A stretch of DNA of 55,156 nt from Planctomycetota bacterium (GTDB lineage Bacteria > Planctomycetota > Uabimicrobiia > Uabimicrobiales > JABWCH01). The notes below the pieces were generated by a model that was given only the letters and a program-made list of their open reading frames with translations, did not search any database and was not told the DNA's origin. This document shows positions 157 through 43,093 of this stretch, one piece after another. How positions within the stretch are numbered: position 1 is the stretch's first letter; the number at the start of each line of letters is the position of its first letter. The stretch lies in contig JAGVGO010000204.1 in NCBI GenBank assembly GCA_020057085.1, positions 1-55,156 of the forward strand. Reading direction: 5' to 3'. Both the position numbers and the translations under genes were made by a program.

Positions 157-3100
157 TCAATAAGTTCGAGGGTTGTGGCTGCCGTAACACGAAGTATTCG
201 TCCAGCATGAGTTTTGTGTCGCCGACGTGGCCGCCTGCCAGCCAGACCAGGCACCGCCGATCATAAAATCGTAGCTCGGTGTATTGTCGGCATTGGGAGC
301 AGCGGCCGGCCAGAGGAATGTACCGCCGTGGATCATGCCGGGTCGGAATGTCCCGGTCGTGTCTGCCGAGTTGTAGCGGGCACCGGTATCCCAGGTCATA
401 GTTCCCTTCCTGAACAGACCGGCATGGCAAAGACGACAGCCAAAACCATAGGTGGCACTGGTAGGGCGGTGATCTGACCTGTTGTGGGCGGTAAAACGAC
501 TGCCGGTACTGGCTGAGACGTATGAAGTGGAAACATGACATTTGGTGCAGAAACCTTCATGCGCAGTGCGCACAGTACTACTGCCGGTAGGGTTATTGGG
601 ATCGAGTTCTCTGTCCACCATGAGCGAATAGAGGCCGCCGTGCCCGTCCACTTCGGTTGCGGGAGAAACCGCACCTCGCATCAAATGGCAGTCCCAGCAG
701 TTGAGAGTCTGACCGGTTCGCTTGAAAACGGCGTAAGCCGCTACCAGGGTGGTGTTATTGGAGTAAAGATTGTGGTAGCCATTGATCGGATGGTAGAAAC
801 TGTTGCTAGTCGCTACCTTGGAATCCACATCGAGAGCCGAGAAAGGGGTTGGCGTCTCCTGGAACGGCGTGCTTGGTGTGGCGCTGGCGCTGACGATTTG
901 GTAATTTTCCTGATCCGCAGCGCCGCCGGCGTCGTGGCATTTCAGACAAATATTGGTCATGACCTGGTTCTGGGTGCTTTCCCCGGTCGGCGGCGTGCCG
1001 TTGCGCCCCATGCCCGGGCCAAAAATGGTATGAGTGCCGTTGCCGGCATTGGTGAGCGGCAGCACAGGTCCACCTGAAGTAGCCGATAGCGTCAACGTGG
1101 TAGCAAGGGGTATACTTTGCACATAGTACGTCGTGTCAGGCAGCAACGGCACGGGAAGATAGCCGACGTAGCTCGTGCCGCCGTTGAGGCTGGTAAGTGG
1201 GAGTACAGGTCCGCCTGAGGTAGCCGAGAGCGTAAACGTGGTAGTAAGGGGTACACTTTGCACATAGTACGTCGTACCTGTCACCAGCGGCGCGGGCACA
1301 TCGTTGGCGGCGACTTTACCGCCGATCTGGGTGCTGGTGAGCGTGAACACAGGTCCGGGCCCCGGTGTCGCGCTTACGGTAAACTGCGTGGTAGGGGTGC
1401 CACTTACACTTTGCACATAGTACGTCGTAGCGGACACCAATGGTGTCGGCACAGGGTTGTGGAACTTGACCGGGGTATTGACCGCAAAAGTATGTGCTGC
1501 CGAAGTAGTCAGCGTATTTCCAGCAACCGCCGAGATCGTATAGGTAGTACCTGGAATATTCGCCAGTGTGACCGCGTTGTTTACCGCAAGGCCGTGTGCT
1601 GCCGATGTAGTCAGGGTGTTCCCTGCTACGGCCGAGATCGTCAAAGTCGGCGTGTTCCTCACTCTCACCTCAGTGCCAACCGTAAAACCGTGCGCTGCCG
1701 AGGTAGTCAACGTGTTCCCGCTAACCGTGAAAGTGAAGCTGGTAGGAATATTAAATTTGGTGAACGAAAATACCTGCGTTGCATCGTCTGGATTTTTCAG
1801 CCTCACCTTGCCTTCACGGTGTTGGCTGATGTCGTGGCAGACCAGGCATCGCAAGCTGATGTTATAGGCGAAAGCCGCTGGCGCTACCGGATCTGTGAGT
1901 GCAGAGAAGCCATGCCTGCCCTTATCGGCAGTAGCCGGAATGATATCACGACGTGAGCCAACGGCAGGGAAAATGCTGGTCTGTACCGTGTTATGGCAGT
2001 CGGCGCACATCTGTTTGGTAAGGCCGGCGCTGCGTTCGTACTGGAAACCGCCGCCGGCTACGCTGTTCTGATGGCGGTGGCAGGCGCTGCATGAGCCGGG
2101 AATGGCATCCGCGGTACTCCATTTTTTCATGAAATGATCGCTGTAGGCGGCATCTGTGCGTTTATGATAGAGCATACCGGCATTGCTATGGCAAACTTTG
2201 CACGGGCCCCAAGAAGTGCTGCCACTTAGACCTTTCGCATAATCGAGATTGCTCAAGAAGGTGACGTCGTTTGTGACATCGGCCGGATATTCTATGGTTT
2301 TTCTGATATTTTTGATGTTGGGCAACGCATCCTGGCGGTGCGGCTGATGGCATACCTTGCAGGTGATCGAAAACGCGGGATAGCTCGACCATGTACTCTT
2401 AGAATGGATATCTACGCTCGCATCTCCTGGCCCGCCGAGTTTGTGGCAGGCGTTGCAGAAATTGCCGGTGTCTTTGGCCGGATCGAGCAAAGGCCCGTTG
2501 GTGTTGGAACTCATATGACTTTTATGGCAGTCAAGACACCCATTGTCCCTGAACCCTATGTAAGCAGGCGTCCCTGTGTTGTCGTTGAGAAAATGGAAGC
2601 CATCTGTGCGCTGGTGCGCGGCGCGCTGGTTTTCTGGTAACTTGGGTTCTTCGGCCATTTGCTGATACGCAGCTACTTTGGGGGCGCGTGCAATCTCGGC
2701 AGCGGTGAACGTAGTCAGACGTTTATTCCGCAGATCGCACACTACCATAGAGCCATCGCTCAACAACACTAGACCGCCAGGGTTTTGCAACTGGCCTGGA
2801 TCCATGCCGAATTCGCCGATTATTTTCTGCAGCGTGCCGGCGGCGTCAAAAATGTACACGCCGTTCCACAAAGAATCTACGGCATAAATAAGTCCGGCCG
2901 CATCGACAGCAATACCTTCAGGGCGAACAAACCAGGCTGTATCGGCGGGTTTGTGGGTGATAGTGCTGAGGAAGTTGCCGGACAAATCGAATAGCTGGAG
3001 TCGCTGATTGCCGAAGTCGCCGACCACAATGCGTTGGTTTGTCTCATCCACAGCGACACCGGTAGGCCAGGAAAGCTGGCCATTACCTGTCCCCGACGTG

Positions 3101-3849
3101 CCAATGGTGGAGAGCAGGTTCTCGCCCGCGAGATGGAATACTTTGATCACACTTTCCTGGCTGTCGGTGACAAAAATCCGGGACTGAGCTTCGGAAACCG
3201 CGATGTCGTTGGGAACAGTGACAGCGCCAAAGCACCTGAGATAATTGCCCTGCTCGTTGTACACATCAATTCTTTGCTGGGTTTTATTGCCGACCAGAAT
3301 TTCGCCGTTTGTTTTGGCAGCAACGCCCAGTGGTTCGCCGTCCACTGTGAATTTGCCGGTGAGATTGCCTGCCAGATCGTAAATTCTGACACTGCGTTCA
3401 ATTGGATTGCTGACCAGGTAACCCTGCGCCAAACTCCTTGCTGACGTAAAAGCGATTCTTATTGGCGAAGGCGCATAAAATGGCGTTGCCAGTGTGCCCG
3501 GCTGGGAAGTCGCTGTCCCCGCATTGTTACTGACAATACAAAAATAGTCGCCCAAATCTGTCTGTGCCATCTGCTCTACTGTGTAACTGGCGGCATTGCC
3601 GGTAGCGACTAGCGAACCATCCTTATGCCACTCATAGGTCAGTGGCGTGGCTCCGGTCGCTCCGACCGAAAACGTCACTGCATCGCCCAGGTTTTTGGTC
3701 ACATACCGCTGCGGCTGCGTCACAATCACCGGAGCTGTCGTCACCTGGCCATTGTCCCAATTGCTGGAAGAATTTTTGTCATCACAAGATGTGCCAATGG
3801 CCAGCAACAAGACCATCAGCCAAAGCAAAATATTTTTGTATAAGTTCAT
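157..3849 (-). CDS. Secreted chimeric multiheme cytochrome c: Ig-like domain + NHL beta-propeller repeats + 11 CXXCH sites, interrupted by a Thr-rich repeat module
   Basis: 1230-aa ORF. AGGAGG lies 6 nt upstream of the ATG at 3849. N-terminal hydrophobic signal ends ...LLLAIGTSC. I-set-like Ig signature (TYEWHKDG...DLGDYFCIVSNNAG). NHL-type repeats (e.g. PTGVAVDETNQRIVVGDFGNQRLQLFDLSGNF). CXXCH starts at aa 438, 465, 497, 550, 587, 615, 668, 968, 1051, 1101 and 1138. Confidence 0.85.
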   Translation of the reverse strand: MNLYKNILLWLMVLLLAIGTSCDDKNSSSNWDNGQVTTAPVIVTQPQRYVTKNLGDAVTFSVGATGATPLTYEWHKDGSLVATGNAASYTVEQMAQTDLGDYFCIVSNNAGTATSQPGTLATPFYAPSPIRIAFTSARSLAQGYLVSNPIERSVRIYDLAGNLTGKFTVDGEPLGVAAKTNGEILVGNKTQQRIDVYNEQGNYLRCFGAVTVPNDIAVSEAQSRIFVTDSQESVIKVFHLAGENLLSTIGTSGTGNGQLSWPTGVAVDETNQRIVVGDFGNQRLQLFDLSGNFLSTITHKPADTAWFVRPEGIAVDAAGLIYAVDSLWNGVYIFDAAGTLQKIIGEFGMDPGQLQNPGGLVLLSDGSMVVCDLRNKRLTTFTAAEIARAPKVAAYQQMAEEPKLPENQRAAHQRTDGFHFLNDNTGTPAYIGFRDNGCLDCHKSHMSSNTNGPLLDPAKDTGNFCNACHKLGGPGDASVDIHSKSTWSSYPAFSITCKVCHQPHRQDALPNIKNIRKTIEYPADVTNDVTFLSNLDYAKGLSGSTSWGPCKVCHSNAGMLYHKRTDAAYSDHFMKKWSTADAIPGSCSACHRHQNSVAGGGFQYERSAGLTKQMCADCHNTVQTSIFPAVGSRRDIIPATADKGRHGFSALTDPVAPAAFAYNISLRCLVCHDISQHREGKVRLKNPDDATQVFSFTKFNIPTSFTFTVSGNTLTTSAAHGFTVGTEVRVRNTPTLTISAVAGNTLTTSAAHGLAVNNAVTLANIPGTTYTISAVAGNTLTTSAAHTFAVNTPVKFHNPVPTPLVSATTYYVQSVSGTPTTQFTVSATPGPGPVFTLTSTQIGGKVAANDVPAPLVTGTTYYVQSVPLTTTFTLSATSGGPVLPLTSLNGGTSYVGYLPVPLLPDTTYYVQSIPLATTLTLSATSGGPVLPLTNAGNGTHTIFGPGMGRNGTPPTGESTQNQVMTNICLKCHDAGGAADQENYQIVSASATPSTPFQETPTPFSALDVDSKVATSNSFYHPINGYHNLYSNNTTLVAAYAVFKRTGQTLNCWDCHLMRGAVSPATEVDGHGGLYSLMVDRELDPNNPTGSSTVRTAHEGFCTKCHVSTSYVSASTGSRFTAHNRSDHRPTSATYGFGCRLCHAGLFRKGTMTWDTGARYNSADTTGTFRPGMIHGGTFLWPAAAPNADNTPSYDFMIGGAWSGWQAATSATQNSCWTNTSCYGSHNPRTY
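1030..1737 (-). repeat. In-frame Thr-rich tandem repeats inside the cytochrome gene (aa ~705-940)
   Basis: There are three copies of ...GNTLTTSAAH(G/T)F... and four copies of ...TTYYVQS(V/I)...T(F/L)TLSATSGGPVLPLT.... The identical 20-mer CTTTGCACATAGTACGTCGT occurs at 1115-1134, 1256-1275 and 1409-1428. Confidence 0.8.
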
Positions 3850-3906
3850 AAAACCTCCTAGAACATAGTTCTATATCATATCCGATGAAATGATAACGGA
3901 TTGAAT

Positions 3907-5409
3907 CTATATCTCGTGCAATTTCCCTGCCGGATGCCCGCTTGCTTTGCCGCCGTGAAAATTGCCTAACTTTTCCATTATTTTTTTCATTTCCGGTGGC
4001 ATGATTCCTTGCATAGCCTTGGCCAGATAAGAATTATGCGTGATTATATGGATGACTTTGACGATGAATTCCTGCTTTTTGGCACTCATTTTTTCCAGGT
4101 TTTGCAGCTTGTGAAAATAGAAGTCGCGCGACGCCTTGCCAAGTTCTGTCGTCAATTCCTCCCGTGTCATGTTGACGGGTTTGACGACCGGCTCGACCAG
4201 GTTGTATTTGCTGTAATCTGTGACTTCGATGTAATCTTTGAGCGATTGGTAAATGGTGGCATAAGGCCACGGTGCGATAGCGAGAAAAAAGGCCAGGTCC
4301 GGATTGTAAAATTTAGCAAGCTCAAGCGTTTGCCGGATAGTTTCCGGCGTGTCGTCTGGCATGCCCAGCACAAAAGAGGTTTCCGACACGATGTCGTGCT
4401 GGTTGATAAGCTCCAGAGCGCGCAGCGAATCTTCGACTTTGATGTTTTTCTGGAATACATCCAGGGCTTTCTGCGAGGTAGATTCGACGCCGACGTAAAT
4501 ATGGTCTACCTCGGCTTCACGATATTTCCAAAAGATATCTTTATCTCTAATTATATCGTCAACCCGCGTTTCCATCAGGATTTTTACGCCGGTTTTTCGC
4601 TCGCGCAGCAGGTCCAATATTTTTTCCCAGCGATCGCGTGCATAAGTAGGCGTCTCGTCGGAAATCATCACTACATTGACACCAAAGCGGTCGCGCAAAT
4701 ATTCCAGCTCTTGCACGAAATTCTCCGCGCTGCGCCCACGCCAGCTTTTTTGCCAGAATAACTGCTGCGAGCAGAAGGTGCAGGCCTGGCAGCAGCCGCG
4801 CGAGGAGCTGACGATGGCCAGGCGCGAATTGGCCATAGCGCGGTAGGTGTAGATAGGCCAATCCACGAGGTCCCAGGCGGTGGGCAGGGCATCGAGATTC
4901 TGGATCATGGGCCGCGGCGGCGTTACGATCACTTGTCCATCCTGCCAGAAGGCAAGCGAACGGACTTTGTCCGGTTTGTCGCCGGCATTGAGACAATGGC
5001 ACAGTTCCACGAGTGTCTCTTCGCCCTCGCCGCGCACGATGAAATCCACGTAAGCATGGTGAGCGGGCAAAATTTCCTGGTAACAGAATGTCGGATGCAC
5101 ATTGCCGATGACAGTGACGATGTGCGGGGTGATTTCTTTGCTGAGCTTGAGCACCTGGAGTGCCGCGACGATTTCGGCGGTGAAAGCCGTGGTGGCGACG
5201 ACGTCCGGCTTTATCTCGCGGATACGGTTTTCTATCTCATCATAACCGTGCTGATGGCTCATGGCATCATAGATGTAAGGCTCGTACCCGGCAGCCCGCA
5301 AACTGCCTGCGATGTAGACAAAACCGACATTGAGCCACACGCCTGCCGATTCGACGACACCGGAATGGTATGGCGGAGTCACCAGCAACACTTTTTTGAT
5401 TTTCTTCAT
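3907..5409 (-). CDS. B12-binding-domain radical SAM protein (class B-like), function unknown
   Basis: 500-aa ORF. N-terminal Rossmann-like B12-binding region (KKVLLVTPPY...DVVATTAFTAEI...). Radical SAM cluster motif CxxxCxxC in SSSRGCCQACTFC. Its start lies 20 nt downstream of the upstream gene's stop. Confidence 0.85.
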   Translation of the reverse strand: MKKIKKVLLVTPPYHSGVVESAGVWLNVGFVYIAGSLRAAGYEPYIYDAMSHQHGYDEIENRIREIKPDVVATTAFTAEIVAALQVLKLSKEITPHIVTVIGNVHPTFCYQEILPAHHAYVDFIVRGEGEETLVELCHCLNAGDKPDKVRSLAFWQDGQVIVTPPRPMIQNLDALPTAWDLVDWPIYTYRAMANSRLAIVSSSRGCCQACTFCSQQLFWQKSWRGRSAENFVQELEYLRDRFGVNVVMISDETPTYARDRWEKILDLLRERKTGVKILMETRVDDIIRDKDIFWKYREAEVDHIYVGVESTSQKALDVFQKNIKVEDSLRALELINQHDIVSETSFVLGMPDDTPETIRQTLELAKFYNPDLAFFLAIAPWPYATIYQSLKDYIEVTDYSKYNLVEPVVKPVNMTREELTTELGKASRDFYFHKLQNLEKMSAKKQEFIVKVIHIITHNSYLAKAMQGIMPPEMKKIMEKLGNFHGGKASGHPAGKLHEI

Positions 5410-5429
5410 AATTAATTCGCATGCATCAA

Positions 5430-6683
5430 TTAGGCTGACTTTTTGGGGTCTCCGGGCTTCTTTGTATCTTCAGGCTTCTTGACCTGTGGATTCTTGACCT
5501 CGGGTTTCTTGGTGCTGTCCGGCTTGGTCATGCTATGCTCTTCCAGCTTCTGCGACAGATCATCCACCGCATCAGGCACGACGATGCTATCTTTAATGAA
5601 TAGTGTTTCCAGCGCCTGGCGGTAATATTTGATGGCCTCCGGCAGTTGCTTTGCTTTGTCCGCGGTCACGCCTTTTTCATAGAAATCGTGCGTCGCGCCG
5701 GTCTCCAGTTCTTCGTGCAAGAGGTCGCCGGCTTTGTGCAAATAGTCTCTTTGCTCCGCTTCTTTGCCGCTCAGCCGTGCCTGTTCATACAATAGACGCT
5801 GTTTGCGACCACCGAGCTTTTCATATTGCTGCAAGGCGGCTATGGCTTCTTTGTTTTTGTTGAGCATGCGGTAAGCGACCGCCATGCCCAGAGCCGGGTC
5901 GGGCTCTTTAGGGAATTGGCTGCTATACTGCTGGAAAAAGGTCAGCGCCTTGTCGTAACGCTTGTTCAGCAATTCCCAATTGCCGGTCTGCAAGAAGGCC
6001 GGCAAAAACTCGGGATACTGTTTCTGGACTTTCTGCAAAACACTTTCGGCCAGAGATTTCTGCCCACGCAACCAGAGTCGGCGGGCCATATTGAGATTGT
6101 AGACCTCTTTGCGCTCTTTTTCACTGAGGTTTTTGCCAGTGGCAGGGTTGAGTTTTTTCTCCATCTCTTCCTTGCTGATGTCGCCGCAGAGCCATGCCAG
6201 ATGCATCGTCACATCCAGCTCGTAGTTGTTGGGGCAGATGGGGCGATAACGCACCAGTGTGCCATCTTTGGCGACGACGAAGGTGCTGGGCAGGACAAAG
6301 ACTTCAAACTTGTTGAAAGCACTCCGCTCCTTGTCGGAAAGCAGCGGAAAGGCGATATTCCATGTTTTTGCTGTCTTTTGCGCAGTGGCGGTATCTTCGT
6401 CTGTGATACCGATAAACACGACACCCCGTTTGCCGAATTTGGCATAGACGTCGGCCAAAAGTTTAAATACTTGTTCCGAGATTGGTTGCTCGGCCTTGAA
6501 AAAAATAATGACACGCGGCTTGCCTTGATCCGCAGATGATTTGTAGTCGCCTATCTGAAACTCCGGCACTTTCTGTCCTTCTTTCAGATCACCCAGGTCG
6601 CCAACTCCTTGCGCTGACAGGAAGCAAAAACACATTATAAATAAGATCGAATATGTCATGAAACAGTTGGTAGAATACAGCAT
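5430..6683 (-). CDS. Secreted thioredoxin-fold (Cys-less redoxin-like) + TPR repeat protein, paralog A
   Basis: I chose the internal ATG at 6683 (MLYSTNCF..., AGGAG 7 nt upstream) by analogy with the paralog. Signal peptide ...FLSAQG. Redoxin-like core GKPRVIIFFKAEQPISEQ...VVFIGIT...FPLLSD...VLPSTFVV with QPIS where CXXC is expected. TPR-like helices follow, then a Lys/Pro-rich tail. Confidence 0.75.
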   Translation of the reverse strand: MLYSTNCFMTYSILFIMCFCFLSAQGVGDLGDLKEGQKVPEFQIGDYKSSADQGKPRVIIFFKAEQPISEQVFKLLADVYAKFGKRGVVFIGITDEDTATAQKTAKTWNIAFPLLSDKERSAFNKFEVFVLPSTFVVAKDGTLVRYRPICPNNYELDVTMHLAWLCGDISKEEMEKKLNPATGKNLSEKERKEVYNLNMARRLWLRGQKSLAESVLQKVQKQYPEFLPAFLQTGNWELLNKRYDKALTFFQQYSSQFPKEPDPALGMAVAYRMLNKNKEAIAALQQYEKLGGRKQRLLYEQARLSGKEAEQRDYLHKAGDLLHEELETGATHDFYEKGVTADKAKQLPEAIKYYRQALETLFIKDSIVVPDAVDDLSQKLEEHSMTKPDSTKKPEVKNPQVKKPEDTKKPGDPKKSA

Positions 6684-6747
6684 AACGCTCCTTTCGAATT
6701 TCAAACAAGGCATTACGGCCGGGGCCGGTTTTTTTCAAAATGAAACT

Positions 6748-6776
6748 TTATCCGACAAGTCCGACTTGTCGGATAA
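6748..6776 (-). terminator. Perfect 13-bp hairpin between the two Trx-TPR paralogs, a possible intrinsic terminator
   Basis: TTATCCGACAAGT-CCG-ACTTGTCGGATAA. On the minus strand it is followed by AGTTTCATTTTG. It lies 28 nt downstream of the paralog B stop codon. Confidence 0.5.
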
Positions 6777-6803
6777 AAAATTGATGTTTCATCGAAGAAA
6801 AAG

Positions 6804-8009
6804 TTATTTTGGTTTTTTCGCATCTTCTGGTTTCTTGGTGCTGTCCGGTTTGCTCATGCTGTGTTCTTCGAGTTTTTTGGACAGATTATCCACCGCATCA
6901 GGCACGACGATGCTATCCTTAATGAATAGTGTTTCCAGCGCCTGGCGGTAACATTTGATGGCCTCCGGCAGTTTCCCTGCTTTGTCCGCAGTCACGCCTT
7001 TTTCATAGAAATCGTGCGCCGCGCCGGCCTCCAGTTCTTCGTGCAAGAGGGCGCTGGCTTTGCGCAAATACTCTGTTTGCGTCGCCTCTTTGCCGTTCAG
7101 CCGTGCCTGTTCATACAATAGACGCTGTTTGCGACCACCGAGCTTTTCATATTGCTGCAGGGCTGCCATGGCTTCTTTGTTTTTGTTGAGCATGCGGTAA
7201 GAAACCGCTATGCCTAGAGCAGGGTCGGGTTCTTTAGGAAATTTGGCGCTGTACTGCTGGAAAAATGCCAGCGCCTTGTCGTAACGCTTGCTCATCAATT
7301 CCCAACTGCCGGTCTGCAAGGCGGCTGGCAAAAAATCGGGATACTGTTTCTGTATTTTCTGCAACACACTTTCAGCCAGAGAGTTCTGACCACGCAACCA
7401 GAGACGACGGGCCATGTTGAGATCGTAAATCTCTTTGCGCTCTTTTGGGCTGAGTTTTTTGCTGTTGTCAGGGTTGAGCTTTTTCTCCATCTCTTCCTTG
7501 CTGATATCACCACAGAACCATGCCAGATGCGTCGCCACATCCAGCTCGTAGTCGTTAGGGCAGACGGCCAGATAACGCACCAGAATGCCATTTTTATCGA
7601 TCACGAGTGTGCTGGGTAGTACAATGAGTTCAAGCTTGTTGAAAGCACTCCGCTCCTTGTCGGCAAGCACAGGGAACGCGATATTCCATGTTTTCGCTAT
7701 CTTTTGCGCGCTGGCAGCATCTTCATTGGTGATACCGATAAATGCGACACCGCGTTTGCCGAATTTGGCATAGACATCGCCCAAAAGCTTAAATATTCTT
7801 TCCGAGATTGCCTGCTCGGCCTTGAAAAAAATAATGACACGCGGCTTGCCCTGGTCTGTGGACGATTTATAGGCGCCTACCTGAAATTCCGGCACTTTTT
7901 GCCCTTCTTTCAGATCGCCCAGGTCGCTCACTCCTTGCGCCGACAAAAAGCAAACGCAAATTATCAATAAAACAGAGTATGTTATGAAATTGTTTGTAGA
8001 AGTTAGCAT
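6804..8009 (-). CDS. Secreted thioredoxin-fold (Cys-less redoxin-like) + TPR repeat protein, paralog B
   Basis: ATG at 8009 (MLTSTNNF...) with AGGAG upstream. The protein is collinear with paralog A and very similar throughout. Long stretches are near-identical at DNA level (e.g. 6880-6960 vs 5560-5640). It has the same Cys-less motif FFKAEQAISER. Confidence 0.75.
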   Translation of the reverse strand: MLTSTNNFITYSVLLIICVCFLSAQGVSDLGDLKEGQKVPEFQVGAYKSSTDQGKPRVIIFFKAEQAISERIFKLLGDVYAKFGKRGVAFIGITNEDAASAQKIAKTWNIAFPVLADKERSAFNKLELIVLPSTLVIDKNGILVRYLAVCPNDYELDVATHLAWFCGDISKEEMEKKLNPDNSKKLSPKERKEIYDLNMARRLWLRGQNSLAESVLQKIQKQYPDFLPAALQTGSWELMSKRYDKALAFFQQYSAKFPKEPDPALGIAVSYRMLNKNKEAMAALQQYEKLGGRKQRLLYEQARLNGKEATQTEYLRKASALLHEELEAGAAHDFYEKGVTADKAGKLPEAIKCYRQALETLFIKDSIVVPDAVDNLSKKLEEHSMSKPDSTKKPEDAKKPK

Positions 8010-8037
8010 AACATTGCTCCTTTCTGTAAGATGCTGG

Positions 8038-9486
8038 TTATTTGCTTCCGCGGTTGTTGATAAACGTTTTGCGGTCATAGTCATATTTGCGATGGCAGCC
8101 AGGCAAACAACCGCCACCTGTCTCGGTCTTGACAAATTTCAGAGGCAAGTTCCAGTTCGCCTTGCCGAAGGGCACCGAGTAACGGATATGTTTAGGCAAG
8201 TGGCTGGCATGCACTTCATGGCAAGAACGGCAAGTGCGGCCCTTCTTTTGGTGGACGTGAATGTAATGCAGATTTTGGTCACCGTTGCGGAAGTTGGTAA
8301 GTTGCGTGGTCGTGGCGGAAAGTACGACTTGCGAGTTATGGCAACTGAAACACAGTCCGTAGAGCTTTTCTTCAAAAGGGGCATAGAAAGCTTCGGGATA
8401 GGGCTTGCGCAACAGGCGGAAATATTCGGAACCGTGAGCGTTATGGCATGGTGCGCACAGGCTTTCGCGGATCGGGCCATGTTTCTCTTTGGCATCTTTC
8501 AAGCTGGCGGCAACATCAGCGATCGGTTTATTGTTTTCGCTCGATTTGAGTGGCTTGTTGTGGCAGGAGAGGCACAAGTCACTTTCCGGTTTGAGCAAAA
8601 GCGAATTGAGTGTCGAACTGTGCGGATCGTGACAGCCGCGACAAGCCTGGCCTTGCAGTACCGGGTCGTGCTTGAATTTTGCTTCTTGTACGGCTTTTTG
8701 TATTTTATCGTGGCATCCCAGACACAACGCCTTGGTATCCTGTCGCAATTGGAAGCGGAAAGCACTGGTGTGCGGATTGTGGCAACCGCTGCAGCCGAGC
8801 TTGTTGATGGCTGTGTGGACGGTAGATTCCTTCATTTTCTCGGCAAAATCTTCATGGCAACTCATGCACAACTCTTTATCCGGCGCGGTCAGCAGATGGT
8901 TCTCGGCGGAGCTATGTGGCGCATGGCAGCCAAGACAGGCGCCGGTTCCATAAGGGCCGTGGCTGTACTCCTGTGTCTTGATGGGATGGCATGAGGAGCA
9001 AATTTCACTAGGATCTTTAAGCAAAAGTCCCTTGAAACCTGAGCCGTGCGGCGAGTGGCAACCGGTGCAATTTTTGTCCGTGACCGGTTTGTGCGTGTGG
9101 GCACCTGGTTTAAGGTCATGGCACTCGGCACAAATCTCGCCTTTGGGCTTCACCAGCATGTTCTGGTTCGGCGATGCGTGCGGGTTATGGCAGGTAGTAC
9201 AACTGGCCGTTGACACCGGGCCATGGACGAAATTATTCTTGCTGTAATTGTCATGACACTGATAGCACAGTTTCTCCGGCGCTTCTACGAGTTTCTTGTG
9301 CTCTTTGCTATGACAGGAATCGCAGGCCATTTTCTCGAACGGCGAATGTTTGTTCGCCATTTTTTTATACGCATCCAGGTTTTTTTGATGGCATTTGCTA
9401 TTGCTGCAATCGCTCATCTCTCCTTCCTTGGCCAAGACCGGCCAGGCAAAAATGACCAGCAAAAACAAAGTTAAGGACGTTTTCAT
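8038..9486 (-). CDS. Periplasmic multiheme cytochrome c (15 CXXCH plus CX4CH and CX3CH candidates), paired-CXXCH / c3-c7-like
   Basis: 482-aa ORF. AGGAG precedes the ATG at 9486. Signal peptide ...AWPVLAKE. The unit C..CH.PH(S/G)S recurs (CTTCHNPHAS, CTGCHSPHGS, CLGCHAPHSS, CSGCHNPHTS, CRGCHDPHSS, CAPCHNAHGS). Confidence 0.9.
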   Translation of the reverse strand: MKTSLTLFLLVIFAWPVLAKEGEMSDCSNSKCHQKNLDAYKKMANKHSPFEKMACDSCHSKEHKKLVEAPEKLCYQCHDNYSKNNFVHGPVSTASCTTCHNPHASPNQNMLVKPKGEICAECHDLKPGAHTHKPVTDKNCTGCHSPHGSGFKGLLLKDPSEICSSCHPIKTQEYSHGPYGTGACLGCHAPHSSAENHLLTAPDKELCMSCHEDFAEKMKESTVHTAINKLGCSGCHNPHTSAFRFQLRQDTKALCLGCHDKIQKAVQEAKFKHDPVLQGQACRGCHDPHSSTLNSLLLKPESDLCLSCHNKPLKSSENNKPIADVAASLKDAKEKHGPIRESLCAPCHNAHGSEYFRLLRKPYPEAFYAPFEEKLYGLCFSCHNSQVVLSATTTQLTNFRNGDQNLHYIHVHQKKGRTCRSCHEVHASHLPKHIRYSVPFGKANWNLPLKFVKTETGGGCLPGCHRKYDYDRKTFINNRGSK

Positions 9487-9515
9487 AATCTACTCCTAAA
9501 AAAAGTAAACACAAA

Positions 9516-12290
9516 TCAAGGTTGTTCCAAAGTGGCAGTTTTCAGCGCATCGTCAATTGCTTTGTATTTGGAGGAATTTTTTGGCATCTGTTGTTGCAAC
9601 AAACGTAGTGAGTCCGCCGTTTCTCGGCGCACGCGCGGATCTGTATCCTGCAACATGGTTATCAATTGCTGATATTCGGCAAAGGCCGACATGATGCCTA
9701 GTCCTCTCACGGCAGCCTTGCGCACCAAAGGACTGGAATCTTTGAGTGCTGTGAGCAAATCATCTATGACACTGCGCTCTCGCGTATTGACCATAGAGAT
9801 GAGCGTATTGGCACGGATTTCCGGATCTTTCTCGCTGAACAGGAGCTTTCGCAGATTCTGGAGCGATTCTGTAGAGACTGTCTTTGGCGGCTCTTGCGTA
9901 CGTGAACGCCACAGCGTCTCTCGCCACATTACCCCCGCGCCGCCCAGGGTTAACAGCAGAAGTGTCAGTATCAACCATCGTTTGCCATGCATCGTTTTTC
10001 TGGCCTGATTGCCGGAAGGAAGCGGCGCAGGTGCTTTCATCTTGTCGGAAGAAAGCGGGGCGGGTGCTTTTGCAGGTGTTTTCATCTTGTCAGAAGAGCG
10101 CGGGGCGGGTGCTTTTGCAGGTGTTTTCATATCTACCTTGCATGGCTCTTGAGCAACGGGCTGTTTTTCCTGCGACAAGATTTCTTTGTCTTTGCTACTG
10201 ACTGTCGGCAGCGATGCCGTTTTTTTACCTTTTTTTATCAGTTCGTATTTGATGTTTTCCAGTGCCTCGATAACGTCCTCTGGTTTTTGGCAGCGTTCTT
10301 CTGGTTTTTTAGCAAGAAAACGCATGGTGAGATCGTTCAAGGAGGCTGAAATACTGGAATTTTTCTTGCGCGGCGGTGTTATTTTAGCGGACGTGTATTC
10401 CTGCAGCACGGTGATCTCTTTGTTCTGGAACGGTAGATCGCCGGTCAATATCACATACATAGTCATGCCAAGAGAGTAGACATCGGCACGGAAATCCACC
10501 GACTTTGGATCGGCAAACAGCTCTGGTGCCATATAAGCGGGTGTACCCAGCAAAATACCAGTATTGGTGAGTGTATCCAGGTTGCCAATTTCTTTCTGTG
10601 CGCCGACCCGGCGTGCCAGACCCAGATCGCAAATTTTTATGCCCTGCCCGACCAGCATGATATTACTTGGTTTGAGGTCGCGGTACAGCATATTTTGTTG
10701 CCACATGTAGCAGAGAGCAGATGCCAATTTGAGCAGAATGGTAACCGCTTCTTTTTCGACAAACGGACCATGAGCGGCGATATACGTATCGAGCGGTTCG
10801 CCTTTGATGAGTTCCATGATAAAGTAGTAAAGCCCGTAAGCATTGCCGAAATCTATCGCCTTGACGATGTTGGGATGGTCCAGTTTGGTCGCAATATCGG
10901 CTTCACGCATGAAACGCATCACGGATGTGGAGTCACCCAGTTCAGGGGCAAATACTTTGAGCGCCACATCCCTCTTGAGCGATAGTTGCAGCGCACGGTA
11001 GACCACGCCGAGACCGCCTTCCCCTATCTTCTCCTGCACTTCATAGCCAGGAAACAAATTTTTGCCGTCCTCGTTTTGCAGTTTTAGCAGGCGGTCCATG
11101 GTGGCGACGTCCAGTGCTTGGCCTTCCAACAGCAGATTATAGAGAGAGAGTTCTTTGCCCTGGACACGCTGCTCGATCTGTTGTTGCAGGCAGTTGTTGA
11201 GTTGCTCCAAAGAAACCAGAGAGAAAGACAACAAGAGTCGCTGCAGGATAGCATCTTCATGGCGCGAAATATTTTTGCTGCTAGCGATGGTTTTGGCTTT
11301 GCCGCCGGACAATTCGTCCGGCCAGGTATCGCCGGCCATGTTTGCCAGTTGGGCGACCTGCTCCAGCGCTTTTTGCAGCGAGATAGATTCTTCGCTATTA
11401 TAGCGTGCAGAAAATTCCTGGCGGACAAACTGCTGCAACGTGCCAGCCCCCTTCTCTTGCCACCAAGCCAGAGCTTTTTCCATCATTTCTTTGCCCAAAT
11501 GTCCCTCCATGAAGGCTATCTTAAAAAACAACAAATCGTTGCTTGTGCCGAGCTTTGCTTTTAGCCAACGGTATTCGTCCAGTTTCTGAAAGCCGGTCAT
11601 AAGTAAAGAAATACTGTTTAGATTTATTTCCCGAGGCGGCAGCTCGATATCTTCTTCAAAACGGAAGTTTCCTTTTTCCCAATCCAGGATCAGATAGAAA
11701 GCCAGACTTCCGTGGTAAGGGCCTGCTTTGGCCGCTATTATTTCTCCATTTTGCCAATAGATATTGCCTTGCAGACCCGATGTACTGTGCAGAGATAAGC
11801 AGCCTGTTTTGTGTGTCTGCTCTATCGGCGACAACAGTTCCGCAAGGGACATAGCCGCCAGTTCCCCCCGCAGTGAAATTTTTCTGGTGGTCGTGCTTGT
11901 TTGACGGTTGCTGCGCTGCACTGCATTTGCGTAAATATCGTTGAGCGAAGTCAGAAAATTTGCCGAGTCGTCGCCGTAGGCGACATAGCCGTCAATACCG
12001 AGTAGTTTACTGCCAGTTATGCTTTGTGACTCTTCCGCACTGCCGGTCAGTAAGAAAGGAATATCTTTGAATACGGGTTGTTCTTTGATTTTCAGGCAAA
12101 AATCAACCCCTTTTTGTTCGAATGCCTTGATGGTCATCAGCATGATGTGCGGCGACAAGGCAGCAATTTCTGTCAGAATGTCCTCGTTTTCCACATCAAG
12201 AGACAACAACATCGCCAGTTCTTGATTCTCTAACTGAATTGGACGGTTATTCTCTTTATGGAAAAGGAGTACAATTTTCAGTCTGTCCAT
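9516..12290 (-). CDS. Membrane Ser/Thr protein kinase with receiver-like N-terminus, DUF4388-like domain and C-terminal HEAT-like repeats
   Basis: 924 aa. AAGGA precedes the ATG at 12290. DUF4388-like segment (LAELLSPIEQTHKTGCLSL...GNIYWQNGEIIAAKAG...WEKGNFRFEE). Hanks kinase motifs GEGGLGVVYRA, VALKVF, YRDLKPSNIML, DLGLAR and GTPAYMAPE. TM helix WLILTLLLLTLGGAGVMW. HEAT-like DPEIRANT.., SSPLVRKAAVRGLG, DPRVRRETADSL. Confidence 0.85.
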   Translation of the reverse strand: MDRLKIVLLFHKENNRPIQLENQELAMLLSLDVENEDILTEIAALSPHIMLMTIKAFEQKGVDFCLKIKEQPVFKDIPFLLTGSAEESQSITGSKLLGIDGYVAYGDDSANFLTSLNDIYANAVQRSNRQTSTTTRKISLRGELAAMSLAELLSPIEQTHKTGCLSLHSTSGLQGNIYWQNGEIIAAKAGPYHGSLAFYLILDWEKGNFRFEEDIELPPREINLNSISLLMTGFQKLDEYRWLKAKLGTSNDLLFFKIAFMEGHLGKEMMEKALAWWQEKGAGTLQQFVRQEFSARYNSEESISLQKALEQVAQLANMAGDTWPDELSGGKAKTIASSKNISRHEDAILQRLLLSFSLVSLEQLNNCLQQQIEQRVQGKELSLYNLLLEGQALDVATMDRLLKLQNEDGKNLFPGYEVQEKIGEGGLGVVYRALQLSLKRDVALKVFAPELGDSTSVMRFMREADIATKLDHPNIVKAIDFGNAYGLYYFIMELIKGEPLDTYIAAHGPFVEKEAVTILLKLASALCYMWQQNMLYRDLKPSNIMLVGQGIKICDLGLARRVGAQKEIGNLDTLTNTGILLGTPAYMAPELFADPKSVDFRADVYSLGMTMYVILTGDLPFQNKEITVLQEYTSAKITPPRKKNSSISASLNDLTMRFLAKKPEERCQKPEDVIEALENIKYELIKKGKKTASLPTVSSKDKEILSQEKQPVAQEPCKVDMKTPAKAPAPRSSDKMKTPAKAPAPLSSDKMKAPAPLPSGNQARKTMHGKRWLILTLLLLTLGGAGVMWRETLWRSRTQEPPKTVSTESLQNLRKLLFSEKDPEIRANTLISMVNTRERSVIDDLLTALKDSSPLVRKAAVRGLGIMSAFAEYQQLITMLQDTDPRVRRETADSLRLLQQQMPKNSSKYKAIDDALKTATLEQP
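10024..10130 (-). repeat. 45-nt in-frame tandem repeat in the kinase linker (encodes MKTPAKAPAP(R/L)SSDK)
   Basis: The identical 29-mer GGGGCGGGTGCTTTTGCAGGTGTTTTCAT occurs at 10057-10085 and 10102-10130. A degenerate third copy lies at 10024-10056. Confidence 0.85.
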
Positions 12291-12514
12291 AATTTATCCT
12301 TTTGGCCAAAATTTGATCTATAGATATGCAAATCATGTACCAAAAAAAAATATTTTTTGAACCTTGATTTTCTTTTTCCTTCCGTATAGGCGGCGGTATT
12401 GTCAAACAAATTCAACACGCACGGGTGTATTGTATACGAGGCTCCTTTGGCAAGCAAACAATATTTTTTTTTACCCTTGCACTCCTTTGTTTTCATGGTA
12501 AAATTTTACAGAAA

Positions 12515-17491: not shown

Positions 17492-18136
17492 ATGGGTAGT
17501 GAAGCGGCGCATAAGAAAAGCTTGCAATATTTGGGACAACGTGCCATCTTGGGCGAATTGGCATGGGGTATTTTTCACGAACTCAATAACCATCTGCAGA
17601 TCGTCTTGGGATTTACCCAAGACCTTTGCGATACTCCTATGTCTTATGAAGATCAAAGCAAGGATATGAGCCTTGTGCTGGATGAAGTGAAGAAGTGCTG
17701 CCAGTTGTTAAAAAATATCAAATTTTTACAAATGGCCAACGACAGCCAGGGGTATGAGGACATTGAGGTGGCACTTGACAATATTCTGCCGTTGCTACAC
17801 TATAAGTTGTACAAAAAAAGTTTGCAATGCCACAAAGAAATTGCTCTAGGCATAGATTTGGTGCAAGGCGAAACCAGCAAAATCCGCAGTGCCATGGTGG
17901 TATTGCTGGCCGCAGCAGTGGAGAGAAGTCTTGACAAAAGCGATTTATACATTAGCGGCAGCCATTGGCGAGATAGGGTGGTGCTGGAGGTCAAATTCAG
18001 TCCGGCCCATGATTCACTTTTTTCGTGGAGCATGGAGGAATATTTGAACTTGCTGGATTATTCGTTCGATTCGCGAGGCGAAGGAAGTTTTCTGGTGTAC
18101 AGTTTAAAATTTCCATGTTTCCATGCCATAGAATAA
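17492..18136 (+). CDS. Soluble histidine-kinase-like protein (H-box present, ATP-binding boxes degenerate)
   Basis: 214 aa. AGGTGAG RBS. H-box ELAWGIFHELNNHLQIVLGF. I found no TM or sensor domain. The expected N-box Asn is absent (VVLLAAAVERS) and I found no DxGxG. Confidence 0.6.
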   Translation: MGSEAAHKKSLQYLGQRAILGELAWGIFHELNNHLQIVLGFTQDLCDTPMSYEDQSKDMSLVLDEVKKCCQLLKNIKFLQMANDSQGYEDIEVALDNILPLLHYKLYKKSLQCHKEIALGIDLVQGETSKIRSAMVVLLAAAVERSLDKSDLYISGSHWRDRVVLEVKFSPAHDSLFSWSMEEYLNLLDYSFDSRGEGSFLVYSLKFPCFHAIE

Positions 18137-18244: not shown

Positions 18245-18285
18245 GGGGCGTTTAGATATTCGGTTTCCATTCAGCGGAGATGGCA

Positions 18286-19668
18286 ATGAAAAAGCATATT
18301 TTAGTGATTGACGATGATACTACTTTGCTTTTATGGTTCGAGAGAACTTTAGAGAGAGAAGGGTTTTTGGGCACTACTTGCAGTGACCCACAGGAAGGCA
18401 TCCGCAGAATTCAGGACAAACGGTACGATCTCATCATATGCGATCAGGGGTTGGGAGATATGGAGGGTATCCAGCTCCTCACCTGTTCCCAGACCTATTA
18501 TCCTGATGTGCCATTTATCATTATTACCGGTTTCGGTTCTGTACCCAAGGCCGTTGAGTCGTTCAAAAAAGGCGCTGCTGACTATATCACTAAACCGATA
18601 GATAAAAAAGAGCTGTTGACATTGATAAATCATGTTTTAGATGAGGCTGTTTCATGTATTCCCACAGAAGAATTGCCGTTACTTCAAGCAGAAATCTCTA
18701 AAACTATGGTGGGCAACAGTGAAAAGATGCAAAAACTTTTTTATGTCATTGCGCAGATCGCTAAAACTTCAGCCACGGTGCTGATAGAAGGCGAAAGCGG
18801 TACCGGCAAAGAATTGATTGCCCGCGCTATCCACCAGGTTAGCCTGCGTTCAGGAGCTCCTTTTGTTGCTATCAACTGCGGTTATCTCAATGAAAATCTA
18901 TTGGAAAACGAATTGTTCGGACACGTACAGGGCGCGTTCACCGGAGCGATAAAATATAAAAAAGGCCTAATGGAAGAGGCAAATGGCGGAACATTATTCC
19001 TCGACGAGATAGGTGATATGCCACTTTTGGTGCAGACCAAACTATTGCGCGTACTACAGGAGAGAGAATTTAAACCATTGGGTAGTAATGAAAATATCCA
19101 CGTTGATATACGCGTAATAGCGGCTACCAACGTAAATTTGCACGAGGCAGTAGTGCAAAAGAAATTTCGCGAAGATTTATACTATCGCCTGGCGGTGATA
19201 CCGATCATGGTGCCCCCGCTACGTGAACGTACGAACGATATTCCTCTGCTGGCCAAGCATTTTATGCAAAAATATGGGCTGGAAAATGGTAAAAATGTTG
19301 AACATATTACGCTTGAAGCCATGTCCCGACTCACTCATTATACATGGCCAGGCAACGTCAGGGAATTGGAAAATACAATTGCCAGAGCTGTGGCCTTGAC
19401 TACCAGCAACAGTATTACCTTGGATTTGCTGATACCCAAAGCGAGCACCGAGAAAACTTTGTTTTCGGCGATTGATGAGGAAACGAACCTGCGTGAGATT
19501 ATCCGCCGTGATACCAAGAGTGCTATCGAGGAGGCATTGAAACTGGCCAAGGGCAATCACTCACAAGCTGCACGTATTCTTGGCATCAGTCGTGCCTCGT
19601 TGTATCACAAAATAAAAAAATACGCATTGCCCCGCTTTTCCAAAAACAATACTACATCTATTTCCTGA
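18286..19668 (+). CDS. Sigma-54-dependent response regulator (NtrC family: REC + AAA+ + Fis-type HTH)
   Basis: REC domain with ILVIDDD...DLIICDQ. Walker [15 protein letters not shown] loop present. C-terminal [29 protein letters not shown] 18286 has GGAG 7 nt upstream; ATG 18280 is also possible. Confidence 0.9.
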
Positions 19669-19679
19669 AAGATGGGCAG

Positions 19680-20624
19680 ATGCAAGAACTACAATATCTC
19701 ACCAAATTTCGTATCCTTACCGAGATTGCTGTCGGTGGCATGGGAGCCGTTTATCTGGCCGAACAAATAGGCGTCAAGAATTTTCGCAAAACGGTCGCCA
19801 TCAAAACCATTCGTACCTCGCTTATCGCGGATGAGGAAACACTCGAAATGTTTCTCGGCGAAGCCCGCCTAGTGGCCGATTTGATCCATGAAAACATCGT
19901 CCAGGTATACCAACTCGGGGAAAGCGATGGTATGTATTATGTCATCATGGAATATGCGGGCGGGCCTAACCTTGAAACTTTTATGGTACGACACAAATTT
20001 ATGAAAAAGAGTGTGCCGGTAGATATCGCCGCATTTATTGTGAGCCGTATCGCCCGTGGCCTCGATTATGCACACAAAAAAAGAGACTATCAAGGTAAAA
20101 GGCTCAAAATTGTACACCGCGATGTTTCTCCTTCCAACATTATCATTACCTACCAAGGCGGGGTCAAATTGACCGATTTCGGTATTGCCAAGGCGCTCAA
20201 CATGAAGGTGCCGGATGAACATGAGGTAATCATGGGCAAATATTCCTATATGTCTCCTGAACAGGTGCGCTGCGAAGGCACGGATCTACGCAGCGATATC
20301 TTTTCCCTGGGGCTGGTTGCCTATGAACTTTTTACCGGTAAAATCATCTACGATGTGGATGATGGTTTGGCTTTACTCGAAGCGCTCAAAAAACCGGTTC
20401 CTTACCCACATCTCCTCAATTCAGCAGTGCCTCCTGCCCTCTCCGCAATAATCATGAAAGCAATTGCTCACAATCCTGACGACCGTTATGCTTCAGCCAA
20501 GGAAATGCAGGAAAAACTGGAATATTTCCTCTGCGATAGCGGATTTAGTTTTAGCAATGAAACATTGGCCAAATATGTCGAGCTGCTTTTTCCCGAAGCC
20601 AGGAAGAAACAGGGTAATAGCTAA
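19680..20624 (+). CDS. Soluble Hanks-type Ser/Thr protein kinase (kinase domain only)
   Basis: 314 aa. Motifs GGMGAVYLA, VAIKTI, VHRDVSPSNIII, TDFGIAK and YMSPEQ. Confidence 0.85.
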   Translation: MQELQYLTKFRILTEIAVGGMGAVYLAEQIGVKNFRKTVAIKTIRTSLIADEETLEMFLGEARLVADLIHENIVQVYQLGESDGMYYVIMEYAGGPNLETFMVRHKFMKKSVPVDIAAFIVSRIARGLDYAHKKRDYQGKRLKIVHRDVSPSNIIITYQGGVKLTDFGIAKALNMKVPDEHEVIMGKYSYMSPEQVRCEGTDLRSDIFSLGLVAYELFTGKIIYDVDDGLALLEALKKPVPYPHLLNSAVPPALSAIIMKAIAHNPDDRYASAKEMQEKLEYFLCDSGFSFSNETLAKYVELLFPEARKKQGNS

Positions 20625-33048: not shown

Positions 33049-33304
33049 TTGCTTGCCTTTCCACCTCTTCTTCCAAAGGATGATATTCACGCTCTATGTC
33101 CAGGTAAATTTCTTGCATTTCCTGGCATCCTTCTATAATCTGCTTACGTAGCTTCTCCTGTTCTTGATTTTCCATCCACTCTAGCAAAAGTTTTGTCATT
33201 ACCTGACTTCTTTTATTTTTGGGAATTACACTTTCAAATCTTTGCAATAATGATTCAGGTAAAGAATATGTCTTTTTCACCAATTTACCAATAACTTGTT
33301 TCAT
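33029..33304 (-). CDS. Ribbon-helix-helix antitoxin (MazE/CopG-like)
   Basis: 91 aa, immediately upstream of and overlapping mazF. RHH-like KKTYSLPESLLQRFESVIPKNKRSQVMTKLL. Acidic C-terminus. Confidence 0.7.
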   Translation of the reverse strand: MKQVIGKLVKKTYSLPESLLQRFESVIPKNKRSQVMTKLLLEWMENQEQEKLRKQIIEGCQEMQEIYLDIEREYHPLEEEVERQASENSKR

Positions 33305-43083: not shown

Positions 43084-43093
43084 AACATTTCTC

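Follow-up and report, generated by a model that had tools for sequence, protein, structure and literature searches.

The window analysed here is an entire contig of 55,156 nucleotides (55 kb; JAGVGO010000204.1, assembly GCA_020057085.1) from a Planctomycetota bacterium, and six minus-strand open reading frames (ORFs) at its beginning, at 157-12290, form a cluster centred on multihaem c-type cytochromes. In the order of transcription they encode a Ser/Thr protein kinase, a secreted cytochrome (cytochrome E, the product of 8038-9486), two proteins that join a thioredoxin-like fold to tetratricopeptide repeats (Trx-TPR paralogs B and A), a cobalamin-dependent radical S-adenosylmethionine enzyme (rSAM) and a lipoprotein with immunoglobulin-like, NHL and haem-binding regions (protein A, the product of gene A, 157-3849). 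All results reported here come from comparison of sequences and of gene order. The ORFs lie where a first, sequence-only reading of the contig had placed them, and the gaps of 29, 28, 20 and 57 nt that it listed match their positions. Its domain calls agree with Pfam: Pkinase, DUF4388 and HEAT in the kinase, Paired_CXXCH in cytochrome E, AhpC-TSA/Redoxin and TPR in the two paralogs, B12-binding and Radical_SAM in rSAM, and Ig_3, NHL and cytochrome domains in protein A. A motif count likewise returns its 26 CXXCH motifs in two proteins (15 plus 11), which are the total for the window, as no other ORF contains one. Intergenic gaps are 20-57 nt throughout the cluster, except for the gap that holds a hairpin. 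The comparisons below indicate that the cluster joins two conserved sub-modules, one of kinase, cytochrome E and Trx-TPR and the other of rSAM and the NHL/haem lipoprotein, and they argue with moderate confidence for an envelope electron-transfer module equipped with its own cytochrome-maturation helpers.

Cytochrome E (482 aa; 8038..9486, minus strand) is a secreted multihaem c-type cytochrome with a Paired_CXXCH match of 247 bits and 15 CXXCH motifs. The sequence-only reading had this number right and overlooked two extra sites, a CX4CH at aa 27, which aligns with a CXXCH in a close relative, and a CX3CH at aa 460, which is invariant in all relatives found. There are therefore 17 candidate haem sites, and the protein probably binds 17 haems. 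Among NCBIfam models it scores below threshold against the DmsE family (156 bits, cut-off 192) and the GSU2203 family (141 bits, cut-off 325), and in the PDB it matches 6r2q_A (E=5.8e-12), which we take to be MtrA. These matches suggest a cytochrome of the MtrA/DmsE kind that lies below the family cut-offs. Its C-terminal module is conserved and reads FRNG..NLH..HV..GRTCRxCHExHA...GGxCxxGCH..YDR.

Protein A (1230 aa; 157..3849, minus strand) has Pfam matches to Ig_3, NHL (PF01436) and cytochrome families and carries 11 CXXCH motifs. From the N to the C terminus it consists of a lipobox, an Ig domain, a six-bladed NHL beta-propeller, a 7-haem domain, a Thr/Ser/Pro-rich repeat region and a 4-haem domain. 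The NHL part matches NHL structures in the PDB (E=4e-38); the haem domains gave no matches to solved structures, and the window cytochromes show no sequence match to filament structures. The lipobox at 3775-3849, LAIGTS before the Cys, is followed by Asp-Asp at +2/+3, and the close relative has Phe at +2. Asp at +2 may mean inner-membrane retention by the rules of E. coli, which may not apply in this host. Between the two haem regions lie three ~47-aa and three ~33-aa repeats (1050-1740), where the close relative has an insert of propeller-like WGS..VFAVG repeats instead. These different inserts indicate that the middle of protein A is a variable cassette.

The two Trx-TPR proteins share a signal peptide, a ResA-like fold and a TPR domain. 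Paralog B (401 aa; 6804..8009, minus strand) has Q-A-I-S in place of CXXC, and paralog A (417 aa counted from Met11; 5430..6683, minus strand) has Q-P-I-S and ends in a Lys/Pro-rich tail; the ORF of the latter extends to 6713, and its start was picked by alignment with its paralogue and with the close relative. Among Trx families in NCBIfam, ResA is the best match of paralog B (43 bits, cut-off 170), and the top nine PDB matches of paralog A are all ResA structures (E=3e-6 to 4e-5), led by 3c71_A (E=3e-6). In the alignment, W-C-P-H-C of B. subtilis ResA falls on E-Q-P-I-S of paralog A, and the cis-Pro loop is kept, with LPST aligned to LPTT. A secreted fold of the ResA type with its cis-Pro loop is thus present, while the active-site CXXC of ResA, TlpA and CcmG is not. 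The replacement of both cysteines (QPIS/QAIS) bears out the description of these proteins as redox-dead, and the absence of both the CXXC and the peroxidatic cysteines excludes a peroxiredoxin or reductase role. The two copies are 81.5% identical and have 300 nt in common at 91% identity.

The rSAM gene (3907..5409, minus strand) encodes a cobalamin-dependent, class B radical-SAM enzyme of 500 aa, predicted to be cytoplasmic; it has no signal peptide, and its neighbours are exported. It contains both the B12-binding (PF02310, 96.5 bits) and the radical-SAM (PF04055, 88.4 bits) cores with the motif C206-x3-C210-x2-C213. Its closest characterised family is BchE (TIGR02026), which it matches at 404.1 bits over profile positions 2-431 of 497, below the cut-off of 481.35; HpnR follows at 137 bits, and all others score at most 137. 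Assignment to BchE itself was rejected because of the sub-threshold score, an identity of 37-39% to genuine BchE from plasmid photosynthesis gene clusters, the position in a separate clade and the lack of photosynthesis genes nearby: no bch or puh genes are found in the window or in related loci. Assignments to HpnR (137 bits against a cut-off of 650) and to ladderane-type lipid rSAM enzymes (91 against 360) were likewise rejected. Taken together, NCBIfam scores, tree and neighbours place the enzyme in no known pigment or lipid family, the kind of membership that would have spoken against a link to the cytochromes. Its relatives number in the thousands, and the best 120 are all 67-78% identical; taking one genome per species, identities are 65-74% in Nitrospirota/Thermodesulfovibrionia, 61-64% in Geobacter/Geomonas and 61-62% in Aromatoleum. 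In a neighbour-joining tree the window enzyme falls within a tight clade; the first branch outside it is a paralogue from the close relative, and BchE comes next.

The sole close relative of the cluster is represented by two contigs of one ENA sample, L085 and L001, which together reproduce it. L085 carries the kinase as a partial orthologue (52% identical) upstream of a 16-haem cytochrome (76%), followed by two Trx-TPR genes (62-66%). L001 starts with a CbiO-like fragment, after which come two rSAM genes, a paralogue (49%) and the orthologue (78%), and then a 1478-aa Ig/NHL/12-haem protein, 33% identical to protein A. The genes are co-conserved, with order and orientation kept at protein identities of 33-78%. 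In L001 the orthologue of gene A is followed by an ORF whose first 122 residues match the N termini of ResB proteins (E=2e-10). The cluster of the relative thus appears to run on into a cytochrome c synthase gene exactly where the window contig stops, 156 nt past gene A, in a stretch where no further start is seen. The lack of Ccm/Nrf-type genes recorded in the sequence-only reading is therefore probably an artefact of the contig end, as ResB follows in the relative and ResB/CcsA accompany the rSAM clade elsewhere. Its remark that an outer-membrane beta-barrel gene, as expected beside the cytochrome of a porin-cytochrome conduit (MtrCAB/Pcc type), is missing holds for the six genes, all of which are otherwise assigned, and does not extend to the far side of the cluster, which is cut off. 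Within each genome the Trx-TPR copies are 79-81% identical, more than the 62-66% between the window and L085, which indicates that the pair was either homogenised or duplicated twice.

Close Trx-TPR members number only four among 5.8 billion proteins, two in the window and two on one other contig. A HMMER profile search extends the family to 94 representative clusters (E<=1e-10) of ~320-360 aa with identical architecture, and across an alignment of 24 members the two Cys positions hold Q and S with at least 90% conservation. Loci of this wider family were taken from nine members looked up and two found in a metagenome scan, on mostly short contigs. In six of the eight contigs with upstream DNA, the gene preceding Trx-TPR ends in the C-terminal module of cytochrome E, at a gap of -8 to +47 nt; over ~115 residues this module is 48-56% identical to that of the window, and GGxCxxGCH is invariant. 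An E-type cytochrome followed by a Trx-TPR with the QxxS motif is therefore, as judged from these loci, a conserved gene pair, even where the Trx-TPR identity is ~25%. Downstream of remote Trx-TPR genes lie further multihaem cytochromes in L090, L092 (25 haems), L104 and L105, and an NHL lipoprotein gene in L105. In L104 (2015-4873) the genes after the pair encode a 4-haem cytochrome and then a 4Fe-4S protein like NrfC and a membrane protein like NrfD; this set resembles a quinol-oxidising entry module, which the window cluster does not contain. The metagenome scan, made with a narrow alignment, yielded only two true Trx-TPR relatives, on short contigs without cytochromes.

The surroundings of rSAM were surveyed by calling and clustering ORFs in 84 related loci with a simple script of our own, which fails in high-GC DNA; Aromatoleum was checked by hand. 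Across 80 loci, the most frequent neighbours are a CcsA-type protein (48), a membrane protein of 116 aa (43), an adenylating enzyme of the LuxE kind (38), ResB (35) and large multihaem cytochromes that form a loose family and contain 6-35 CXXCH (27); this cytochrome family is a heterogeneous product of single-linkage clustering, and the loci compared are not phylogenetically independent. ResB/CcsA or a cytochrome with at least five haems stands in the flanks of 57 of the 77 non-redundant loci, many of them on short contigs. By rough arithmetic, not a computed control, ResB/CcsA would be expected in ~1% of random 20-kb windows, against 61% observed; the expectation presumes one to few copies per genome, as we assume. 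The linkage is also polar. ResB/CcsA lie almost exclusively upstream of rSAM on the same strand. CcsA stands within three genes upstream in 17 loci; in seven of these it is the direct neighbour, so that neither LuxE nor a second rSAM intervenes. Cytochromes concentrate at positions +1 to +3 downstream and fade past seven genes. Spacing is operon-like in L010, L058 and L071, with 4-nt overlaps and gaps of 20-30 nt; in L010 the order is CcsA, -4 nt, lipoprotein, 22 nt, F2, 30 nt, rSAM.

The order of these genes differs between phyla. Multihaem cytochrome, ResB, CcsA, an optional lipoprotein, an optional membrane protein and rSAM make up one arrangement; ResB, CcsA, a second rSAM, LuxE, membrane protein and rSAM another. 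Several Nitrospirota have rSAM, an NHL propeller, a 5-haem protein and a multihaem cytochrome, and Aromatoleum toluvorans has a multihaem cytochrome, LuxE, rSAM, a second multihaem cytochrome and ResB. Such variety points to selection for linkage rather than to one inherited arrangement. The CcsA-like neighbours score 158 bits against an NCBIfam equivalog cut-off of 187.6, as specialised paralogues would, and no curated NCBIfam model exists for any of the accessory families. The NHL part of protein A matches the separate propeller proteins that follow rSAM in Nitrospirota, and its haem regions match the cytochromes that come after them, which makes protein A a fusion of two recurrent rSAM neighbours. 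Cytochromes flanking the rSAM clade (L005-L084) contain 110 CX4CH against 881 CXXCH motifs, in 30 of 65 proteins, and the control spacings CX6-8CH occur 0-1 times. One Aromatoleum cytochrome has an N-terminal domain that matches PDB 7tfs (E=5.5e-27), which we take to be the OmcE filament; the idea that the flanking cytochromes are nanowire subunits was rejected, as a Nitrospirota member of the same loose cluster lacks this match.

Two further features recur around the enzyme. The 116-aa membrane protein (for example L010:6090-6440) usually precedes rSAM and belongs to no Pfam or NCBIfam family; in L046:7588-9369 a B12-rSAM paralogue ends in a membrane domain similar to this small histidine-containing protein, a fusion that suggests the small protein to be a membrane partner of these B12-rSAM enzymes. 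NikR-like regulator or CbiMNQO-type cobalt transporter genes often flank rSAM (L006, L063, L066, L069, L070, L073, L077, L079 and L083), in keeping with a heavy cobalamin demand.

At the upstream end of the cluster, the kinase (924 aa; 9516..12290, minus strand) has Pfam matches of 180 bits to Pkinase, 69 bits to DUF4388 and 51 bits to HEAT_2. A weak receiver-like region is followed by DUF4388, a Hanks-type kinase domain at aa 416-668, a Pro/Ala/Lys-rich linker, a membrane helix and HEAT repeats. The catalytic domain is complete (PF00069, profile positions 1-253 of 263), the linker is built of 15-aa repeats that appear as a DNA repeat at 10027-10130, and the one probable membrane helix spans ~aa 772-789. 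In a search with the whole kinase, only the kinase domain (~28% coverage) was matched, and no full-length relatives beyond the L085 orthologue were found. The window encodes at least three more Ser/Thr kinases plus an FHA-GAF-PP2C (SpoIIE) phosphatase; genes of these two kinds lie at 19680-20624, 23824-25332 (plus strand) and 36227-38053 (minus strand). The genome is thus rich in eukaryote-like phosphosignalling, which weakens a specific reading of the cluster kinase. The earlier suggestion that the module is under kinase control stands on the adjacency of these genes in two genomes and is tentative.

Signals for transcription were found at two places. A sigma-54-type -24/-12 element, TGGTACATGATTTGCA, lies at 12327..12342 on the minus strand, 37 nt upstream of the kinase start codon, and has one mismatch to TGGCAC-N5-TTGCW. 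It is one of two such matches on both strands of the window and, by consensus matching, a candidate cluster promoter. The gene at 18280-19668 codes for a sigma-54-dependent response regulator, and a possible HisKA-like ORF (17492-18136) comes before it. Between the two Trx-TPR genes a terminator scan located an intrinsic-terminator-like hairpin (6746..6778, minus strand) with a 15-bp stem, a 3-nt loop and a T-rich tail. The sequence-only reading had placed a hairpin after paralog B, and folding agrees: the energy is -39.2 kcal/mol (z = -4.06), and 0 of 200 shuffles were as stable. L085 has a 9-bp GC stem with a U-rich run of different sequence (4340-4425) at the same inter-paralogue position as that of the window (6684-6810). 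The hairpin may attenuate transcription or stabilise mRNA between the halves of the cluster. Judged by consensus matching only, the sigma-54 element and internal hairpin would give an enhancer-dependent transcript that is attenuated between its two halves.

Across the divergent promoter from the kinase lie genes for a 205-aa secreted protein and EF-P. Elsewhere in the window, a MazF/PemK toxin gene (32698-33304, minus strand) follows a small ORF that is its likely antitoxin. A MacB-type periplasmic domain is joined to an FtsX permease and an ABC ATPase in one 810-aa protein (27369-29801, minus strand). The stretch at 40885-49521 (minus strand) encodes three large proteins of 746, 896 and 1193 aa, secreted or lipoprotein-like, with matches only to DUF2950 and one PD40 repeat. 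Scans of the window for tRNA and Rfam families came back empty.

These observations can be brought together in a model of an electron-transfer module and its helpers. Cytochrome E would be a soluble periplasmic electron wire and protein A its lipid-anchored distal redox partner, locations inferred from the signal peptide and the lipobox. The NHL propeller, a separate protein in other extracellular electron transfer (EET) clusters, would act as a scaffold or assembly element. Trx-TPR, derived from the ResA/TlpA lineage of apocytochrome reductases, would bind unfolded apocytochrome as an escort or holdase without reducing it. A binder rather than a reducer is proposed because the cysteines are lost, the cis-proline of the substrate groove is kept and the TPR domain is of the sort found in CcmI, NrfG and SirG. 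The fixed position of Trx-TPR after a cytochrome with an invariant CX3CH suggests that its role may be linked to that site. On the cytoplasmic side, rSAM would be an accessory of System II cytochrome c biogenesis and alter haem, or another tetrapyrrole, before its export and attachment by a specialised ResB/CcsA pair, which would complete the second sub-module past the contig end. Haem is the likeliest substrate because the nearest characterised relative acts on a porphyrin propionate and the tightest genomic partner is the haem exporter/lyase. Action on haem before export is ranked first among the possible functions of rSAM, as a tentative proposal. In its boldest form, which we regard as somewhat more doubtful, the rSAM clade would be an unrecognised System II accessory that alters haem, at a propionate or a methyl group for instance, to give modified haem c in some giant cytochromes, and in parallel the QxxS Trx-TPR proteins would be new ResA-derived periplasmic apocytochrome chaperones. 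Such haem would be carried by some of the giant multihaem cytochromes found in Nitrospirota, in Geobacter-type bacteria, in Aromatoleum and in the lineage studied here. The sequence-only reading had likewise proposed an electron-transfer module with its own maturation or chaperone factors. The helper reading remains the best one, with the genes co-conserved and the rSAM clade flanked by multihaem cytochromes; kinase control is a tentative part of it.

Several observations pull in the other direction. In some organisms the general systems suffice to mature CX3CH and CX4CH sites, and a dedicated helper is not needed. No ResB/CcsA gene lies in the 55-kb window, which ends 156 nt past gene A, and 20 of the 77 rSAM loci, many on short contigs, have neither ResB/CcsA nor cytochromes. 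Chance adjacency to multihaem genes becomes likelier in genomes rich in cytochromes; ResB/CcsA are far less affected, on the assumption of one to few copies per genome. In L094 and L095, which belong to one subgroup of remote Trx-TPR relatives, the genes around are unrelated and no cytochrome is a neighbour. None of the rSAM loci yielded a full Trx-TPR gene in a profile search, which means that the two helper families meet in this lineage only. An AlphaFold2 model of Trx-TPR built from a 4-sequence alignment was unusable, with a mean predicted local distance difference test score (pLDDT) of 44 and a predicted template modelling score (pTM) of 0.26. Finally, in many loci rSAM has further companions, namely another B12-rSAM, an adenylating enzyme of the LuxE kind and a small membrane protein, with which a lipid or cofactor pathway would fit as well.

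This last point leads to an alternative in which rSAM serves a pathway unrelated to cytochromes, for instance one that modifies a membrane lipid, quinone or cobamide, and merely shares anaerobic regulation or an ancestral neighbourhood with them. The LuxE-like enzyme in 38 loci, the 116-aa protein in 43, the second rSAM clade in many, the paralogue fused to a membrane protein and the frequent cobalt transporter and NikR genes all agree with it, as does the location of resB/ccsB in a generally syntenic region of Desulfuromonadia (bioRxiv 10.1101/2025.10.22.684050). We nevertheless hold it to be rather improbable: CcsA lies within three genes upstream in 17 loci and is adjacent in seven, the linkage is kept through different gene orders in at least three phyla, and in the window and its relative rSAM still stands between cytochrome-related genes although neither has LuxE or the membrane protein. 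Modification of a protein rather than of haem is less probable again. Here rSAM would C-methylate or cross-link the cytochrome polypeptide, or another exported protein, before Sec export, and would be likened to anaerobic sulfatase-maturing enzymes and to the B12-rSAM methylases of ribosomally synthesised and post-translationally modified peptides (RiPPs) and of methyl-coenzyme M reductase (MCR). An enzyme without signal peptide among exported neighbours suits this, and so do similarities of 91-133 bits (NCBIfam) to RiPP C-methyltransferases and the MCR glutamine methyltransferase; a protein substrate would also fit the way in which certain large cytochromes and NHL proteins are linked to rSAM. 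The nearest family by far is nonetheless the tetrapyrrole enzyme BchE (404 against at most 137 bits), and the strongest and most polar linkage is to ResB/CcsA, not to one cytochrome family.

Least credible of all, in our judgement, is a chance juxtaposition of the six genes where the contig happens to end, with Trx-TPR a generic periplasmic stress or peroxiredoxin-like protein and the kinase one of many. The strong hairpin that splits the block, the other kinases and the phosphatase in the window and the existence of a single close relative could be taken this way. Order and orientation are, however, kept in that relative at 33-78% protein identity, the pair of cytochrome and Trx-TPR holds at ~25% Trx-TPR identity, and the gaps apart from that of the hairpin are 20-57 nt. 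The absence of both peroxidatic and CXXC cysteines removes the peroxiredoxin-like function that this explanation would give to Trx-TPR. The module with its own maturation helpers therefore remains the preferred interpretation.

Several known systems resemble parts of such a module. The uet cluster of 'Candidatus Tenderia electrophaga' (Tenderiales), a conserved block for extracellular electron uptake, combines the undecahaem cytochrome UetJ, the NHL proteins UetH and UetI and further multihaem cytochromes with CcsA/CcsB and an NrfG-like TPR protein (bioRxiv 10.1101/2022.05.06.490989). Its counterparts in the window are the fused 11 haem motifs and NHL propeller of protein A, a second multihaem cytochrome, the TPR helpers and, in the relative, ResB; UetJ is likened to protein A by description. 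The uet cluster differs in that its description mentions neither a radical-SAM enzyme nor a thioredoxin-fold fusion, and in its beta-barrel UetC, peptidyl-prolyl isomerase, cupredoxin and trihaem c7 proteins, none of which were found in the window. Minimal OmcE clusters of Desulfuromonadia contain two multihaem cytochromes, two beta-propeller lipoproteins, a filament subunit and a large beta-barrel beside resB/ccsB (bioRxiv 10.1101/2025.10.22.684050). Protein A shares with the uet and OmcE/OmcS clusters the combination of an NHL propeller lipoprotein and multihaem cytochromes. The OmcE/OmcS clusters are set apart by their filament subunit and beta-barrel, and rSAM is not discussed in their description (bioRxiv 10.1101/2025.10.22.684050); no filament subunit, beta-barrel or isomerase of uet or OmcE-OmcS type was found in the window.

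A second comparison is with dedicated haem-lyase systems. E. coli NrfEFG, Shewanella SirEFG with CcmI and Wolinella CcsA1/NrfI place extra synthase components, a TPR chaperone and a thiol-oxidoreductase-type protein beside the cytochrome that they serve, and CcmI, NrfG and SirG are TPR apocytochrome chaperones (PMC6976685). In the window, similarly, a TPR/thioredoxin-fold protein follows a cytochrome with a non-canonical CX3CH, and divergent ResB/CcsA accompany the rSAM clade. The differences are that the fold is cysteine-less and fused to TPR, and that the context is System II, not System I. To our knowledge CX3CH needs no special lyase, and we know of no radical-SAM partner in systems of the NrfEFG, SirEFG or CcsA1 type. 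CnoX (YbbN) of E. coli, a cytoplasmic holdase, has a thioredoxin-like domain without a functional CXXC and a C-terminal TPR domain. It follows the same two-part logic as Trx-TPR, whereas the window proteins have signal peptides and are closest to periplasmic ResA; no sequence-family link between CnoX and Trx-TPR was detected. The enzyme compared with rSAM, BchE, is membrane-associated and acts on a porphyrin propionate side chain (PMC10114771). The two share the architecture of a B12-binding and a radical-SAM domain with similarity over the full length, but the neighbours of rSAM are cytochrome and biogenesis genes rather than puh/bch, and its carriers are non-phototrophs.

EET clusters with NHL proteins, CcsA/CcsB and NrfG-like TPR proteins, and lyase or chaperone sets for unusual haem sites, are thus known already. 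In the literature we found no account of a B12 radical-SAM enzyme that recurs beside ResB/CcsA and giant cytochromes, and none of a family of cysteine-less ResA-like/TPR fusions tied to a single family of cytochromes. In the current view System II requires nothing beyond ResB/CcsA and thiol-redox helpers. Metal respiration, corrosion, electrosynthesis and 'nanowire' conduction all depend on multihaem cytochromes. Members of the rSAM clade are found in cultured bacteria, among them Geomonas paludis Red736, G. azotofigens Red51, G. silvestris Red330, G. limicola Red745, Aromatoleum toluvorans Td21 and A. evansii KB740 (loci L056, L057, L060, L064, L080 and L084), so these ideas are directly testable. 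If they are true, the company that rSAM keeps with ResB/CcsA and giant cytochromes across several phyla would be the sign of a step not yet recognised, whose product could be a modified haem or a modified cytochrome. Such a modification could change redox tuning and help explain why some of these cytochromes are hard to express in other hosts, and the cysteine-less ResA-like/TPR family would represent a new kind of periplasmic apocytochrome chaperone.

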